A stretch of 64,000 nucleotides of DNA from sequence record ON286973; one strand, 5' to 3'. Every line of letters begins with the position of its first letter. Positions within the stretch are counted from its first letter, which is position 1. This DNA comes from Escherichia phage A51.2. This document shows positions 20,019-29,193 of the stretch, piece by piece. The notes under the pieces were generated by a model that saw only the letters and a program-made list of their open reading frames with translations, made no database searches and was not told where the DNA came from. The position numbers and the translations under genes are program-made.

Positions 20019-20252
20019 ATGAAAGTTAAATTTCTTACAGATTTAGGGTACCCTTCCTTGGTTGACTGTGTTGGTAAAATTGTGGAAGCAAAACGGCTAT
20101 CTGCAAACGAGAATGTTGTCCTGGTTAAAGGGAAGGATTTACTAGCTGCAGGTGCAGAGTCTGGCAGGATCTCTCCTGATTATATGTATTACCTATCTTT
20201 AAGTAATCTGCCAGAGCGAGGCGGTAAAGGCCTTGAAGTTGTGGAGGAGTGA
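20019..20252 (+). CDS. small acidic protein, VEVVEE-tail family member A
   Basis: RBS AGGAGG; MKVKFL...KGKDLLAAGA...LEVVEE. Confidence 0.5.
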   Translation: MKVKFLTDLGYPSLVDCVGKIVEAKRLSANENVVLVKGKDLLAAGAESGRISPDYMYYLSLSNLPERGGKGLEVVEE

Positions 20253-23395: not shown

Positions 23396-23677
23396 ATGAA
23401 AAAGATTAACAGTAGTGAAGTAGAGTTTAAACTTGTCGGAAAAGGCACTTACTGGGAAGTTCGTCAAAAGGTATATTTGTTCGGTCTTATTCCCTACTGG
23501 TCTAAATTCTACTGGGGAGCTAACGAGTTGGGAAGATACGCCACCAAATCAATGGCACTTATTGGTATAGCAGAGTACATTGCAGCCCGAGACAGGGTTG
23601 GAACCACTTATTACTACACTGCTGACGATATTCGTAACAGTGTTTACGTCCCACAACCACCTGATGGAGACCGTTGA
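23396..23677 (+). CDS. hypothetical protein
   Basis: ATG 23396 after AGAGGGAG. Confidence 0.4.
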   Translation: MKKINSSEVEFKLVGKGTYWEVRQKVYLFGLIPYWSKFYWGANELGRYATKSMALIGIAEYIAARDRVGTTYYYTADDIRNSVYVPQPPDGDR

Positions 23678-23901
23678 TGAAAGTTAAAGTTTTAGATTCA
23701 AGCTTCTATATTGGTCAGGAGCCTTTAGTAGGAAAAGTGTTTACTGCTGTCCCTAACGAAGATTACCCTGACCTTTTAAAAATAAAAGGAGCAGATCTTA
23801 TTGCCGCTGGTGCATCTCAGGAATGCTTTGACAGTCAGTGGACCTATAACTTTGCCCTAGGTGAGGATGTAGAGGTAGTGGAGGACGATCATGAAGGTTA
23901 A
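23677..23901 (+). CDS. small acidic protein, VEVVEE-tail family member B
   Basis: MKVKVLDS...KGADLIAAGA...DVEVVEDD. Confidence 0.5.
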   Translation: MKVKVLDSSFYIGQEPLVGKVFTAVPNEDYPDLLKIKGADLIAAGASQECFDSQWTYNFALGEDVEVVEDDHEG

Positions 23902-24145
23902 AATTCTTGATTCTAACGTCTACTTGGGACAATCCTTCCTGAATGGAAAGGTCGTTCCTGCGGTATACTTTGAAGGGTTGCCGTGGGATGATCCTGTGCG
24001 GCAACATCACAGTTATGTAGGCCACAACGTGGTGTTTATCTTGGGATCAGACCTGATCACCGCTGGTGCACCTGAATATTATTTCGGGGAAGAGTCCTAC
24101 TATGCCTTTGGGGTAGGGTCAGATGCAGATATTGTAGAGCTGTGA
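23891..24145 (+). CDS. small acidic protein, VEVVEE-tail family member C
   Basis: MKVKILDS...GSDLITAGA...DADIVEL; similar to B. Confidence 0.5.
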   Translation: MKVKILDSNVYLGQSFLNGKVVPAVYFEGLPWDDPVRQHHSYVGHNVVFILGSDLITAGAPEYYFGEESYYAFGVGSDADIVEL

Positions 24146-24157
24146 TGGGTAACCGTT

Positions 24158-24556
24158 GTGAAAAATAAACTGTTTAAAGTTACAATGAAAATTCGCGGGG
24201 CTTGGAGCGTAAAGCAAGGGCGTATTCCAGAATTTGAGAAAGACTTCTACGTAGTCTCCACCTCGGAGGAGGCTGCATGCTGGCAGGCTGGCTATGCCTA
24301 TGCAAGAACCTGGTACGAAGGATACCAGACTGGGGGCTATGACGGAGAAATTATCAGCAAGGGTGTAGAAGAAATTAATGTGTTGACAAGTGAAAAAGTT
24401 TTTGTTATAGTGCATCCAGATTCCAGAGTGAAGCATTACTGGAATGCCAGAACAAAAACTTGGACACCGTTTGCAGATTCTGCTACGCCACTTTTAAACC
24501 AGAAAGCTCTTGACTCTGCCCCAAGTTATGGGGTTGTTGAAGAAAAGCTAAACTGA
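24158..24556 (+). CDS. hypothetical protein, paralogue of 26368..26763
   Basis: Shares HP[DH]S..YW..K.WTP motif with the 26368 gene; GTG start. Confidence 0.45.
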   Translation: MKNKLFKVTMKIRGAWSVKQGRIPEFEKDFYVVSTSEEAACWQAGYAYARTWYEGYQTGGYDGEIISKGVEEINVLTSEKVFVIVHPDSRVKHYWNARTKTWTPFADSATPLLNQKALDSAPSYGVVEEKLN

Positions 24557-24573
24557 AACAGTGAGGTGTCACC

Positions 24574-24864
24574 ATGATGGATTTAATTCTAAATATTGAT
24601 AACGCAGGAGAGTTTAAAGACGATGGTGTAACAAGCATGGACAAACCCTGCTCTGCTAAGGTTGACTCAAAATGGACCTACAAGTTTGACGGAGAGATCT
24701 TCGCAAATGATGAGAAGGTTGTAGATGCTGCAGCCATTTTAAACGCTCTAGGGTACGACCCTGTGAATTCTTTGATCAAGGATCCTGTTGAGTTTGCAGA
24801 GTATGTTCGAAAAATGGCAGATCTTGCTGTGGATATTTTAAAAACTATCGACAACAAGCTGTAA
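24574..24864 (+). CDS. hypothetical protein
   Basis: RBS GTGAGGTG. Confidence 0.45.
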   Translation: MMDLILNIDNAGEFKDDGVTSMDKPCSAKVDSKWTYKFDGEIFANDEKVVDAAAILNALGYDPVNSLIKDPVEFAEYVRKMADLAVDILKTIDNKL

Positions 24865-24870
24865 AAACTG

Positions 24871-24899
24871 TTGACACAACGCTTCAGATTTAGTATCAT
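24871..24899 (+). promoter_or_regulatory. sigma70-like promoter (TTGACA-17-TATCAT) upstream of hpf homologue
   Basis: Consensus -35 with 17-bp spacer. Confidence 0.55.
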
Positions 24900-24948
24900 T
24901 GTTTTCAAAGAGAGATAGTTATTCCCTCTTCCTTAAAAGGAACACGTT

Positions 24949-25269
24949 ATGCAAATTGAAATCACTGGCAACAATGTAGAAATCACAGAAGGTATGGTAT
25001 CTTTTATTTCCCGCAAAATGTCCAAGCTGGAGCGTTTACATCCCTCTGTTAACTATGCACGTGTGAGTGTAAAAGTTGAAAATGATCACCAGGAAGTTAT
25101 GGCGTTCATTTTTGACAATTCTGGAAAAGAAGTTATTGCCAAGGCTAAAGGCAGTGATGCTTACGAGGCAACTGACCGTATGGTAGATGTTGCAGCACGT
25201 CAGCTGGCTAAATGCGGTGGAAAGAAAGGTAAGGGGAAAGGCAAAGTAAAGATTGACTTTGGAGAATGA
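24949..25269 (+). CDS. hpf: ribosome hibernation promoting factor / RaiA (YfiA) family protein
   Basis: MQIEITGNNVEITEGM...KLE...VKVE...DAYEATDRMVDVAARQLAK aligns closely with E. coli HPF/YfiA; basic Lys/Gly C-tail. Confidence 0.85.
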   Translation: MQIEITGNNVEITEGMVSFISRKMSKLERLHPSVNYARVSVKVENDHQEVMAFIFDNSGKEVIAKAKGSDAYEATDRMVDVAARQLAKCGGKKGKGKGKVKIDFGE

Positions 25270-25406
25270 GGTGCTACAATGGGTGTGATTAAGAAATTAG
25301 TCCCAAATGTAGAGATTGCATGCTTTGAAATTATGTTTGCAATCGCAGTTGTAGTTAATGTGTTAGGTTACGGCTATTAATATCAAATAATTGAGGAGAC
25401 CTCTAA

Positions 25407-25676
25407 ATGAAAATTAAATTATTCCAAACTGAGCTGGCAGACAAAAATTGTGGACTGGTTGAAGGCATGATTGTTGAAGCACAACCAGTGGACTATATGA
25501 AGGTGGTTCGTGATGCCCTAGGTGAAGGTTTTGATCTGATGGAGCCAGCTCTGCGAGAAGATGTTATCGAGATGGCTAAAAAGCACACACCTGAAGGTTT
25601 GGTGGTGTTTGTTGCACCGGGTAACGGAGAAGAGTTGATTGTAACTCCTGATGTGTATGAGATTGTAGAGGAATAA
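25407..25676 (+). CDS. small acidic protein, VEVVEE-tail family member D
   Basis: RBS GAGGAG; MKIKLF...C-terminus VYEIVEE. Confidence 0.5.
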   Translation: MKIKLFQTELADKNCGLVEGMIVEAQPVDYMKVVRDALGEGFDLMEPALREDVIEMAKKHTPEGLVVFVAPGNGEELIVTPDVYEIVEE

Positions 25677-25767
25677 TCCTGCTTGGATTAGCATACTTCC
25701 TCGCTAAGGAAGATTTGTAATTATTTGTGGGAAAGGAGTCCCAATCTCTTACCAGAGGTGATACTAT

Positions 25768-26031
25768 ATGATTGTTTATTTTAAAACTTCAGGTGGATAC
25801 CCTGATTCTCAAAGCTTGATCGGAAAAACGTGCACAGCATACTCACCTCTTGATGAGGAGGTAAGCGATATTTTACGAAATATGTATCGGATTGACCCCC
25901 AAGAAGCCTTTGATCAAAACCTTGTATTTGTCAAGGGCTCAGATATGAAGTCTTTGGGAGCATTCCCTGAAGCAGATGATGATGCCGTTTATTCGTTCAT
26001 GACTCCTTTTGAAGCTATGGTTGTTGGGTGA
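25768..26031 (+). CDS. small acidic protein, VEVVEE-tail family member E
   Basis: RBS AGAGGTG; KGSDMKSLGA core; C-terminus FEAMVVG. Confidence 0.5.
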   Translation: MIVYFKTSGGYPDSQSLIGKTCTAYSPLDEEVSDILRNMYRIDPQEAFDQNLVFVKGSDMKSLGAFPEADDDAVYSFMTPFEAMVVG

Positions 26032-26035
26032 TAAT

Positions 26036-26368
26036 ATGAAAGTACGCTTTATTGGTGAAACAATTCCTGTGCATCTCCGGTCGCCTGAGGATTCTGCAGA
26101 TCTTGCATCTCAAAAGGCGAGAGGTTATGATAAGAAAGTAACCTCAACCGATGTAGTGCTTGAGGCTACTAGTCTACCTGACCCTGCTGCATTCTTTAAT
26201 CATTATGGGTACTATTTCAGCAATCTGATGAATATCGGTGAGCTTGTGTTTATTAGTGGTGGAGAAATTGTTAGCAAGCTTGGCGGCGATCCGGATGTCT
26301 TTCATGAAACCTGTCCTTTTGCATTTGTGGTGGGTTCAGATGTGGAAGTTATTGAGGAGGTGCGGTAA
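26036..26368 (+). CDS. small acidic protein, VEVVEE-tail family member F
   Basis: MKVRFIGE...C-terminus SDVEVIEEVR; ATG 26036. Confidence 0.5.
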   Translation: MKVRFIGETIPVHLRSPEDSADLASQKARGYDKKVTSTDVVLEATSLPDPAAFFNHYGYYFSNLMNIGELVFISGGEIVSKLGGDPDVFHETCPFAFVVGSDVEVIEEVR

Positions 26369-26763
26369 TGGTAAGCCTATACCGTGTTGAGTATAGCTCA
26401 GATACTGTATACAACGTAAGAAGCAAAGATCGCAGCGACAGAGTGCAAGAAATGTATGTTCTTGCCGACAGTCCGTTATCTGCAGCGTTCAAGGCAGGGG
26501 CTCTTGCATCTCGTTGGAAATTTGAAGGCGGATCTTTCTATGAAGAAACCCTTGAAGATTCTGTTGTTATTTCTTCTGTAGAGGTTTCAGATGACTACGA
26601 AGGGAAAAAGTTCGTAATGCGGCACCCACACAGCAACATTGCGTACTACTGGGATGTTCTGAACAACGAGTGGACCCCAGATCTTCAGAAGGCTACTGTG
26701 CTAACACCGTTTTTGGCAGATAAGTTCCCACCAGAAGGTAATTTATCCGCACTGTTTCAGTAA
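26368..26763 (+). CDS. hypothetical protein, paralogue of 24158..24556
   Basis: RBS GGAGGTG; shares HPHS..YW..WTP motif. Confidence 0.5.
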   Translation: MVSLYRVEYSSDTVYNVRSKDRSDRVQEMYVLADSPLSAAFKAGALASRWKFEGGSFYEETLEDSVVISSVEVSDDYEGKKFVMRHPHSNIAYYWDVLNNEWTPDLQKATVLTPFLADKFPPEGNLSALFQ

Positions 26764-26781
26764 TTTTCTTGCACACAGGTG

Positions 26782-26812
26782 TTGACAACACCAACCCTGT
26801 GTGAAATAATAC
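26782..26812 (+). promoter_or_regulatory. possible promoter (TTGACA inside CACACAGG/CCTGTGTG inverted repeat)
   Basis: -35 consensus flanked by 8-bp inverted repeat; -10 ambiguous. Confidence 0.35.
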
Positions 26813-26842
26813 CTTCATCTTAACAAGACGGGAGACTGATTG

Positions 26843-27100
26843 ATGAAGATTAAACTGAAAAACCTTGAAATGGCAGAGATTCAGGATGGTGTTGATTTCC
26901 GCTCTAAAGATGGTGACATCTTGGAGGTAAATCTTCCAACCTACGAGCTGATTAAAGGTTTTGGCAACGTTCAGGAAGAGGATATTCCAGAAACTCTTAT
27001 GATGTTGATTCTTGACGGAACTGTGTTTGTAGGTGAAGGTGAGAACGCTATTGCAATCCCCGGCCATTTTTATGAAGTAGTTGACGAAGAGGTGCTGTAA
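26843..27100 (+). CDS. small acidic protein, VEVVEE-tail family member G
   Basis: MKIKLKNL...C-terminus YEVVDEEVL. Confidence 0.5.
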   Translation: MKIKLKNLEMAEIQDGVDFRSKDGDILEVNLPTYELIKGFGNVQEEDIPETLMMLILDGTVFVGEGENAIAIPGHFYEVVDEEVL

Positions 27101-27451
27101 ATGAAAGTAGAAATTACTGGTTTTGATGTTAGTGTGGTTCCGGAAGATATTTTAGCTAACTTACCGGAAGGTTTTGGTAACGGTGTTGTGGTGGATGCTG
27201 TTCCTCCTACCAAAGACATTCTGCTGCAGTATGGTGTAGCAGAGGAAGATGTCGATAAAGTTCTTACAATGATGGCAATCGATCGTGTTGTCGTTGTTAA
27301 AGGTCTCGATAATTTTGAGAGTGATCCTCTGATTATTCGCGGAGATGACTACAAAATCATCGATAATGAAGGCCAAGAGTTCTATGAGCCTTGTGCAGAA
27401 GATATTCTTAACTTATTACTGGAAGCAGGCACCGAAGAGGAGGACGAATAA
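27101..27451 (+). CDS. hypothetical acidic protein (MKVEITG N-terminus)
   Basis: 116-aa ORF, C-terminus EEEDE. Confidence 0.45.
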   Translation: MKVEITGFDVSVVPEDILANLPEGFGNGVVVDAVPPTKDILLQYGVAEEDVDKVLTMMAIDRVVVVKGLDNFESDPLIIRGDDYKIIDNEGQEFYEPCAEDILNLLLEAGTEEEDE

Positions 27452-27780
27452 TGAAGATTGACCCGTTACTGAAGGCTCGTGCAGAAAAAGCGTACACCAT
27501 TAAGCTGACCAACCTGGTTCCTACTTGTCATCCAGATGTAGGTTGGCCCGAAGGTTTGGTGGAGGGAACTGTAACAGCTGCATACCTTCCTAACATCAAA
27601 TACCTTATGGAAATCTTGGAGCTGGATGAGGAAACGGCAGAAGAGTTACAGTTGGACATGAAACAAAGTGGGACTCTGGTTATTCACGGGTGGTATAATA
27701 CTAAAGATGCAGAAGACCCTCTGGTAACTTCTAATCTGGCATATGAAATCTTAGGACCTTTGAACCTGGAGGAAGACTAA
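27451..27780 (+). CDS. hypothetical acidic protein
   Basis: 109-aa ORF, overlapping start/stop. Confidence 0.45.
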   Translation: MKIDPLLKARAEKAYTIKLTNLVPTCHPDVGWPEGLVEGTVTAAYLPNIKYLMEILELDEETAEELQLDMKQSGTLVIHGWYNTKDAEDPLVTSNLAYEILGPLNLEED

Positions 27781-28067
27781 TGAAAGATTTGGTTAAGATT
27801 AAGATTAAAGATACCAATGGAGAACTCAGCCATTTTGGAATTAAGGATGGTGACGAGCTGATCGCACACTTGCCTACTAAGGAGGTTGTAAGCAAAGCAG
27901 TTGCCGGAGAAGAAGCTGCAATGCAGGCTGCAGGTGTGGATGAAAACTATGTAGCTATGTGCATGTGCCGAGATCAGGTTGTTCTGTATAAAGCGTATCG
28001 ACCAAACGGAGCCACGGAGTGGCTTGTATTCCGACCCGAAGGATATGAAATCTTAGAGGCACTATGA
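27780..28067 (+). CDS. hypothetical protein
   Basis: 95-aa ORF. Confidence 0.45.
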   Translation: MKDLVKIKIKDTNGELSHFGIKDGDELIAHLPTKEVVSKAVAGEEAAMQAAGVDENYVAMCMCRDQVVLYKAYRPNGATEWLVFRPEGYEILEAL

Positions 28068-29161: not shown

Positions 29162-29166
29162 TGACA

Positions 29167-29193
29167 AAGAGGGGGGCTTAGGCCCCTCTTTTT
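29167..29193 (+). terminator. intrinsic terminator (AAGAGGGG...CCCCTCTT plus T tract)
   Basis: 8-bp stem followed by TTT. Confidence 0.7.

Follow-up and report, generated by a model that had tools for sequence, protein, structure and literature searches.

Gene pairs at the locus and their families

The 64,000-nucleotide stretch of DNA from Escherichia phage A51.2 that we analysed (sequence record ON286973, its full length being referred to as the window) contains a portion of an rV5-like early-gene region, which is built of repeatedly copied small-protein families that we call A (five members), B (two) and C (five). Positions 23600-27100 are 99.9% identical to Escherichia phage slur16, an rV5-like coliphage of the genus Vequintavirus, and 95-99% identical to about 115 further Vequintavirus (rV5-like) records. 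A first-pass annotation of this region, made from the sequence alone, had singled out two gene pairs and read them as copies of a two-gene cassette; we name the first genes of the pairs A2 and A4 and the second genes B1 and B2. The four open reading frames (ORFs) that it had proposed were all confirmed, on the plus strand. In the RefSeq record of slur16 every gene of both pairs is a ‘hypothetical protein’, the sole named gene nearby being a homolog of RaiA/HPF. The genes follow each other in the order A1-A2-B1, then gp140, HPF, a small ORF and gp137, then A3-A4-B2. The members of families A and B are the following, with lengths in amino acids and isoelectric points (pI):

A0, 20019..20252, plus strand: dispersed fifth member of family A, a predicted SH3-like barrel family; 77 amino acids; phrog_5009
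A1, 23677..23901, plus strand: family A, tandem paralog of A2, with an 11-nt overlap onto the A2 start; 74 amino acids; pI 4.1
A2, 23891..24145, plus strand: family A; 84 amino acids; pI 4.5
B1, 24158..24556, plus strand: family B (phrog_7379); 132 amino acids when started at GTG 24158; pI 7.8
A3, 25768..26031, plus strand: family A; 87 amino acids; pI 4.1; phrog_13920
A4, 26036..26368, plus strand: family A with two extra insertions; 110 amino acids; pI 4.7; phrog_13661
B2, 26368..26763, plus strand: family B (phrog_7379); 131 amino acids; pI 4.7

At the A2/B1 junction the two genes are separated by a gap of 12 nt, and at the A4/B2 junction they have one base in common, the final A of the TAA stop also opening the ATG of B2; a GAGGAGG Shine-Dalgarno sequence precedes that ATG.

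Both gene pairs are paralogous at the protein level, in the same order and orientation, with alignments well above background. For B1 and B2, BLASTP finds 33 identical residues over 119 (28%, E 8e-10), and the Smith-Waterman score of 111 compares with a mean of 27.9 +/- 4.7 for composition-matched shuffles (z 17.7, with none of 2000 shuffles scoring as high). HHalign links the two with a probability of 96.9%. Both are full-length members of phrog_7379, which PHROGs labels ‘unknown function’ (B1: E 4.3e-74, residues 2-132 on profile positions 1-131; B2: E 2.1e-66, residues 1-131 on profile positions 1-131), and the B homolog of the more distant type III relatives described below also matches this profile (1.9e-25). 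The shared motif reads HP(D/H)S-x4-YW-x4-(K/N)-x-WTP, with H86-P87-x-S89, W95 and W102 invariant; it lies in the C-terminal part of the B2 structure model. The motifs reported for both pairs by the first-pass annotation are thus real, although their spacing had been written loosely. Its description of the region as an array of acidic proteins holds for B2 and the A proteins (pI 4.1-4.7) and fails for B1, which is neutral (pI 7.8).

The length of 132 amino acids reported for B1, next to 131 for B2, is right provided that translation starts at GTG 24158. RefSeq places the start of the slur16 gene (gp141, YP_009177580) at ATG 24185, nine codons later. We hold GTG 24158 to be the true start because the N-terminal residues that it adds are conserved (KLFKVT in B1, SLYRVE in B2 and NLYKIT in the distant homolog P0043), and the annotated start is thus probably nine codons too short. 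The type III B homolog has a GTG start of its own, behind a GAGGAGG ribosome-binding site.

Family B is confined to a narrow set of phages. A word-indexed homolog search with B2 as query returned B2 itself alone, and tblastn searches of 50,697 phage records with B1 and B2 gave no match outside Vequintavirus, even with E values up to 1. In a profile search of 1.84 billion cluster representatives the family came to five real clusters, two of which are fragments of B1 and B2; the clusters make up four lineages, namely B1, B2, P0041 (B2-type) and P0043 (B1-type), all of which share one syntenic early region in related phages. Three further candidates from this search, P0045-P0047, were dismissed as repeat proteins and spurious matches. 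One predicted protein of 107 amino acids, P0042, carries the B1 residues up to TWTPFAD joined straight to the C-terminal half of gp140 (AAAILNALGYDP...), which would imply an in-frame deletion variant across the B1/gp140 junction in some genome.

For the first genes of the pairs, BLASTP aligns A2 and A4 with 22 of 69 residues identical (32%, E 2e-5); the pair reaches a shuffle z of 8.9, with 0/2000 shuffles as high, and an HHalign probability of 90.6%. All-against-all BLAST and iterated hidden Markov model (HMM) searches of the window ORFs extend this family to five members, A0 to A4, which share the motif AF-x-VGSD-x-(D/E)-(I/V)-(V/I)-E. A0, A1 and A2 belong to phrog_5009, likewise labelled ‘unknown function’ (E 8e-36, 2e-38 and 4e-32), and A3 matches it weakly (1.2e-4). 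PHROGs keeps A3 and A4 as families of their own (phrog_13920 and phrog_13661); here A3 is tied to family A by an HMM match (E 4e-6) and by HHalign probabilities of 83-87% to A0 and A2, while A4, without a phrog_5009 match, is tied to A2 by BLASTP and HHalign and to the family by the in-window HMM.

The picture of a clean two-gene cassette does not survive this enlargement of family A. The layout is A1-A2-B1 followed by A3-A4-B2, and A2 is related most closely to A1, the gene just upstream (40% identity, E 1.6e-13, z 24), then to A0, and not to A4. Across the two cassettes the shuffle z scores are 8.9 for A2-A4, 7.8 for A1-A4, 5.8 for A2-A3 and 5.2 for A1-A3, and the similarity of A3 to A4 lies near background (z 2.9, HHalign 14%). 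An insert of the form LPxxDP...H..Y is common to A2 and A4 and missing from A0, A1 and the prophage homologs. In a neighbour-joining tree built on about 70 alignable columns, A3 and A4 are set against the rest with 66% bootstrap and A1 is paired with A2 at 68%; its deepest split thus separates the A genes next to B1 from those next to B2, mirroring the split between B1 and B2 at these bootstrap values of 66-68%. We also considered a duplicated three-gene A-A-B unit, with A1 corresponding to A3 and A2 to A4, and rejected it, as A1-A3 (z 5.2) scores below A1-A4 (7.8) and the tree pairs A1 with A2.

Natural recombinants of the tandem A genes were also found. P0016 (70 amino acids, on a 133-kb contig) has the N-terminus of A1 fused to the C-terminus of A2, P0030 has a prophage-type N-terminus fused to the C-terminus of A1, and P0039 is listed with these two. 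One genome of the same locus type as the window lacks A1 (L016:2521-2793). On the evidence of the P0016 and P0030 chimeras and this A1-less genome, unequal recombination in the A array is ongoing and A1 is dispensable.

Selection, age and distribution among related phages

No copy shows signs of decay. Essentially every one of some 118 Vequintavirus records carries both B genes, with intact ORFs and identities of 95-100%. Ratios of nonsynonymous to synonymous substitution rates (dN/dS), calculated by the Nei-Gojobori method between the window and the relative L006 (85-96% identical, and 77-93% at the DNA level), are 0.05 for A1, 0.14 for A2, 0.03 for B1, 0.08 for A3, 0.07 for A4 and 0.04 for B2, so that B1 and B2 rank with the most constrained genes of the region. 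Purifying selection acts on all six genes and, given ratios of 0.03-0.14, none is a pseudogene.

At the DNA level, blastn with a word size of 7 between 23677-24556 and 25768-26763 returned only chance-level matches of 9-23 nt, and the junctions differ between the cassettes (12-nt gap against 1-nt overlap). The missing DNA similarity and junction match are expected if the duplication is ancient, and they limit the cassette claim rather than refuting it. The sequence comparisons show the duplication to be ancient and older than the Vequintavirus radiation.

The organisation of the locus in relatives was drawn from the contigs of the cluster representatives, IMG/VR and metagenome contigs, type II and III loci being read with 5-8 kb of flank on each side. 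Three locus types were distinguished:

Type I (the window, L006, L014-L017, L021): gp145, gp144, A1, A2, B1, gp140, HPF, gp137, A3, A4, B2, family C
Type II (L002; proteins 40-82% identical): the type I order, with an unrelated 96-amino-acid gene, x96, in the place of B1
Type III (L003, L007-L010, L018-L020): gp145, gp144, x96, the unrelated 120-amino-acid gene L3_120, a single B gene, gp137, family C

Conserved-gene identity makes type III the outgroup. Within the 5-8 kb flanks its loci lack A1-A4, B2 and the HPF/RaiA homolog, which is present in types I and II; A0 is found elsewhere and is the sole family A member that type III relatives have. Searches of both strands with the A and B HMMs in L003 and L008-L010, each with 7-8 kb flanks, likewise found no A1-A4 or B2. 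The single type III B gene is 38-39% identical to B1 and 27-28% to B2, whereas the type II B gene is 40% identical to B2 and 28% to B1.

Cassette 2 (A3-A4-B2) is co-inherited, being intact in types I and II and wholly missing from type III loci. Cassette 1 is broken up: B1 is missing next to the A1-A2 of type II, and in type III a B1-type gene stands without an adjacent A gene. The genes x96 and L3_120, which lie upstream of the type III B gene, were tested as divergent A genes and discarded (HHalign <1.5%). In one type III variant (L018:4653-5387, compared with L003:6652-7390) L3_120, which is phrog_2510-like, and B form one ORF of 244 amino acids because a CCC run has one base fewer; the alternatives are a genuine fusion of the two genes and a sequencing error in the homopolymer. 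Should the fusion be real, it would hint that L3_120, and not an A protein, partners B there.

Outside these phages, a family A member of 75 amino acids, P0033, about 41% identical to A0, is found in lambdoid phages (the E. coli prophages L011, L012 and L013, and phages mEp554 and mEp010), flanked by the Q antiterminator on one side and the holin/lysozyme genes on the other; A0 is the member closest to these homologs. The lambdoid loci have one copy of it and no B-family gene nearby, whereas the rV5-like phages have five A copies in their early region. The site between the Q antiterminator and the lysis cassette is one that we take to be the ‘moron’ position of lambdoid phages, where accessory genes such as P0033 are found. 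The small gene, a predicted barrel, is thus common to temperate and virulent coliphages. Two other genera of the Vequintavirinae were checked: within 12 kb of the conserved gp127 homolog, Seunavirus LNA4 and a Klebsiella phage both lack homologs of A, B and C.

Origin of the repeated A-B arrangement

We tentatively favour one ancient duplication of a short A-B segment, followed by rearrangement, as the origin of the A-B ... A-B pattern. A single short segment, consisting of an A-family gene and then a B gene, would have been duplicated once before the split of the rV5-like types I, II and III, and A1 would have been added beside A2, and A3 beside A4, later. Lineage-specific losses would then account for the replacement of B1 in type II and for the absence from type III of the B-adjacent A genes and of the whole second cassette. 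The copies have diverged to the twilight zone (about 28-32% identity) and each is held by strong purifying selection, which would make them subfunctionalised rather than redundant, as a neutral B1 and an acidic B2 exemplify. We infer that A and B moved as one unit. In support of this account, the genes have the same order and strand with tight spacing at both A-B joins, and it is improbable that both B genes should directly follow an A gene by chance (<1% in a rough estimate assuming 3 A blocks and about 45 early genes). Furthermore, the B-adjacent genes A2 and A4 are the best cross-cassette pair and have an insert in common, and the nearness of the type III B gene to B1 and of the type II B gene to B2 is consistent with a duplication older than the lineages and subsequent reciprocal loss. 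Of the segmental duplication first proposed, the paralogy of A2 with A4 and B1 with B2, in the same order on the plus strand, is thus upheld; collinear DNA similarity and co-inheritance of cassette 1 are not.

Several observations nevertheless weigh against a single duplicated segment. In a rival account, that of independent duplications, B was copied alone, or only in the ancestor shared by types I and II, after which B2 evolved faster; the A genes proliferated separately as mobile small genes and the adjacencies arose secondarily, for instance by deletion of x96 between A2 and B1. A1 and A0 are far closer relatives of A2 than A4 is, and the weak A3-A4 pair, near background, means that cassette duplication and then tandem duplication of A would call for strongly accelerated divergence. 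With bootstrap values of 66-68%, the family A tree has weak support and cannot tell a cassette from independent duplications. A and B separate both ways, in type II with A1-A2-x96 and no B1 and in type III with x96-L3_120-B and no adjacent A. As the type III B gene is preceded by the unrelated x96 and L3_120 and x96 occupies exactly the B1 position in type II, x96 may by parsimony once have stood between A2 and B1, making the A2-B1 adjacency secondary. A0, being common to type III and lambdoid phages, may be the ancestral copy, in which case the B-adjacent A genes would be later arrivals. The lone lambdoid A genes between Q antiterminator and holin show that A moves by itself, and the P0016 and P0030 chimeras together with the A1-less L016 that A genes are still rearranging. 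We nevertheless regard independent duplications as somewhat unlikely, since they leave to chance, at the same rough estimate, the placing of both B genes directly downstream of A on the same strand with coupled spacing; nor do they account for the insert shared by the B-adjacent A genes, which are also the best cross-cassette match, or for the deepest tree split, which sets the A genes of cassette 1 apart from those of cassette 2.

It is also conceivable, if improbable, that one of the B genes, with or without its A neighbour, was recombined in from a related phage, so that B1 and B2 would be xenologs. The B1 type stands alone in type III and the B2 type alone in type II, the region is a mosaic with lineage-specific genes (x96, L3_120, a P22_Y8K6-like gene and a TnpB-like gene), and the A0-type gene common to lambdoid phages at about 41% identity shows that exchange occurs. 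However, all four B lineages are syntenic in related phages, no outside donor was found among the 1.84 billion representatives, and the distribution is explained equally well by reciprocal loss. A separate, overlapping question is whether A and B form an obligate two-component module, an A:B heteromer whose duplication gave a single host-directed machine two versions of differing specificity, A2:B1 and A4:B2. The repeated adjacency, the overlap of the A4 stop with the B2 start, which suggests translational coupling, the joint presence of A4 and B2 in types I and II and joint absence from type III, and the strong constraint on both members speak for such a module. We nonetheless think it doubtful, to about the same degree as horizontal acquisition, since A2 and B1 are separable in both directions (types II and III), lambdoid A genes stand alone, and the in-frame fusion of B in one type III variant is to the unrelated L3_120 and not to an A gene. 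For the same reason of co-occurrence, with A1-A2 lacking B1 in type II, a B1-type gene lacking an adjacent A in type III and A alone in lambdoid phages, the suggestion that the two proteins act together is not backed by the comparison. A physical partnership of A and B is neither required nor excluded by the data.

Predicted roles and neighbouring genes

The B2 structure model is of moderate quality (predicted local distance difference test, pLDDT, 75; predicted template modelling score, pTM, 0.70) and was built from a shallow alignment of only 5 sequences. It consists of an N-terminal beta-beta-alpha-beta domain, which resembles eL20/LX and PurS, and a beta-rich C-terminal part with the HPxS...YW...W motif. 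The A2 model is an SH3-like small beta-barrel with a short helical insert, for which the nearest known counterparts would be small barrels such as SH3, KOW, PsaE, the retroviral integrase C-terminal domain and OapB. In a BFVD search of predicted virus structures, the B2 model matched B1 itself and V5KSY8, a protein of 185 amino acids from Escherichia phage 4MG (Foldseek E 2e-3, TMq 0.58, 20% identity), which is the sole structural neighbour of the model outside Vequintavirus and could be a distant, longer member of family B from a different phage. When A, B, x96, L3_120 and family C were compared by sequence with Pfam, NCBIfam and the PDB, no match rose above noise.

To judge from the models, the SH3-like and eL20/PurS likenesses would be fold resemblances and not family memberships. 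B has no sequence similarity to eL20/LX (L18a) or PurS, no Ribosomal_L18ae (eL20/LX) sequence-profile match was found for B, and its HPxS/YW/W motif lies outside the matched domain. A modelled eL20-like fold beside a phage HPF gene is suggestive. One could picture A and B as two halves of an early module that acts on host translation together with the phage HPF, an eL20/LX-like B docking on ribosomes or rRNA, an SH3-like A serving as its adaptor, and the duplication yielding neutral B1 and acidic B2 variants. We consider this highly improbable; B2 is acidic, unlike an rRNA-binding protein, which argues against rRNA binding.

Early ‘host-takeover’ gene families are a feature of large lytic phages, for example the SPO1 host-takeover module and the T4/T5 early clusters. 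The locus resembles these in its short, same-strand and often acidic ORF arrays, its sigma-70-type promoters, its variability between relatives, the scarcity of homologs and its tandem-duplicated paralogs; it differs in that the early timing of A, B and C is inferred from position alone. Since the proteins are without any enzyme signature, A and B would most likely be non-enzymatic binders of host macromolecules early in infection, in host takeover or counter-defence, with A as an SH3-like barrel adaptor and B as an alpha/beta module. This assignment is based on gene position, protein size, strand, sigma-70-like promoters and the analogy with other large lytic phages.

Gene-family expansion in phage early regions is a well known phenomenon, and the A/B paralogs are an ordinary example of it in a large lytic phage. 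That B1 goes with B2, and A0, A1 and A2 together, is already known from PHROGs, which records no gene order or cassette relationship. Our sequence comparisons add three things: A3 and A4 are tied to family A, the layout is A-A-B ... A-A-B, and relatives provide evidence that the genes can be separated. Literature searches found no description of these paralogs, and the rV5 genome paper says nothing of paralogs (PMC3606486). On a practical level, about a dozen ‘hypothetical’ early genes collapse to the three paralog families A, B and C, and two PHROG singleton families are joined to phrog_5009, a gain in annotation for a therapeutically used genus, since rV5-like phages are found both in the BASEL collection and among E. 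coli O157 cocktails. From the natural variants (types II and III, the chimeras and the A1-less variant) it can already be read which copies are dispensable and which can be separated. Should A and B interact, the diverged pairs would offer a ready system in which to follow how new specificities arise in phage host-takeover modules.

The genes between the two cassettes are not paralogs of A or B. They and the further features of the locus are:

gp140, 24574-24864, plus strand: spacer gene between the cassettes, with no paralogy to A or B
HPF/RaiA ribosome hibernation factor homolog, 24949-25269, plus strand: spacer gene
Small ORF, within 24574..25676 between HPF and gp137, plus strand: spacer gene
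gp137, 25407-25676, plus strand: family C member and spacer gene
Terminator-like stem-loop, 25696..25712, plus strand: between gp137 and A3; a consensus match only
Strong sigma-70-like promoter match, 26782..26810, plus strand: 11/12 positions with extended -10, directly downstream of B2
Family C array (gp133, gp132, gp131, gp130), 26843..28067, plus strand: second tandem array of acidic paralogs

The HPF/RaiA homolog matches TIGR00741 (56.8 bits, cutoff 40.9) and is preceded by a strong sigma-70-like promoter match of its own at 24871-24899. The stem-loop may bound an A3-A4-B2 transcription unit on its upstream side, and the family C array is likely to be the next unit, starting from the promoter match downstream of B2. 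Searches of the window for tRNAs and Rfam families found none.

Family C (gp137, gp133, gp132, gp131 and gp130) spans 25407-25676 and 26843-28067, is kept in all three locus types and is very acidic (pI 4.0-4.9). Its members share the pattern MKxKL ... G.V.A..P ... helix ... VV ... YEIxE, with pairwise HHalign links of 59-89% and lower values for other pairs. The family has no detectable sequence relationship to A or B. Since its termini resemble those of family A (MKxKL ... YEIVEE), a superfamily of A and C was considered and rejected at the sequence level, with an HHalign probability of 2%.

The wider region is mosaic, with x96, L3_120, the P22_Y8K6-like gene and a TnpB-like insertion all lineage-specific. 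The last of these is a gene of 370 amino acids resembling IS605 OrfB / TnpB (Pfam OrfB_IS605 and Cas12f1-like_TNB) in the early region of a type III contig (L003:10532-11644). It is missing from that site, just downstream of the gp127 homolog, in the window, and the spacing of the flanking genes in L007 and L008 leaves no room for it; these three contigs were the ones checked. A GC-rich hairpin at 29166-29191 has a terminator score on both strands and lies just ahead of the change of sign in GC skew (about 30 kb), the end of the rightward early-gene block. Finally, E. coli rV5-like phages are matched across this region at 98-99.5% identity by 18 GenBank records that bear the name ‘Campylobacter phage’ (MG0656xx, host C. 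jejuni), and these records are probably mislabelled or contaminant coliphage genomes.

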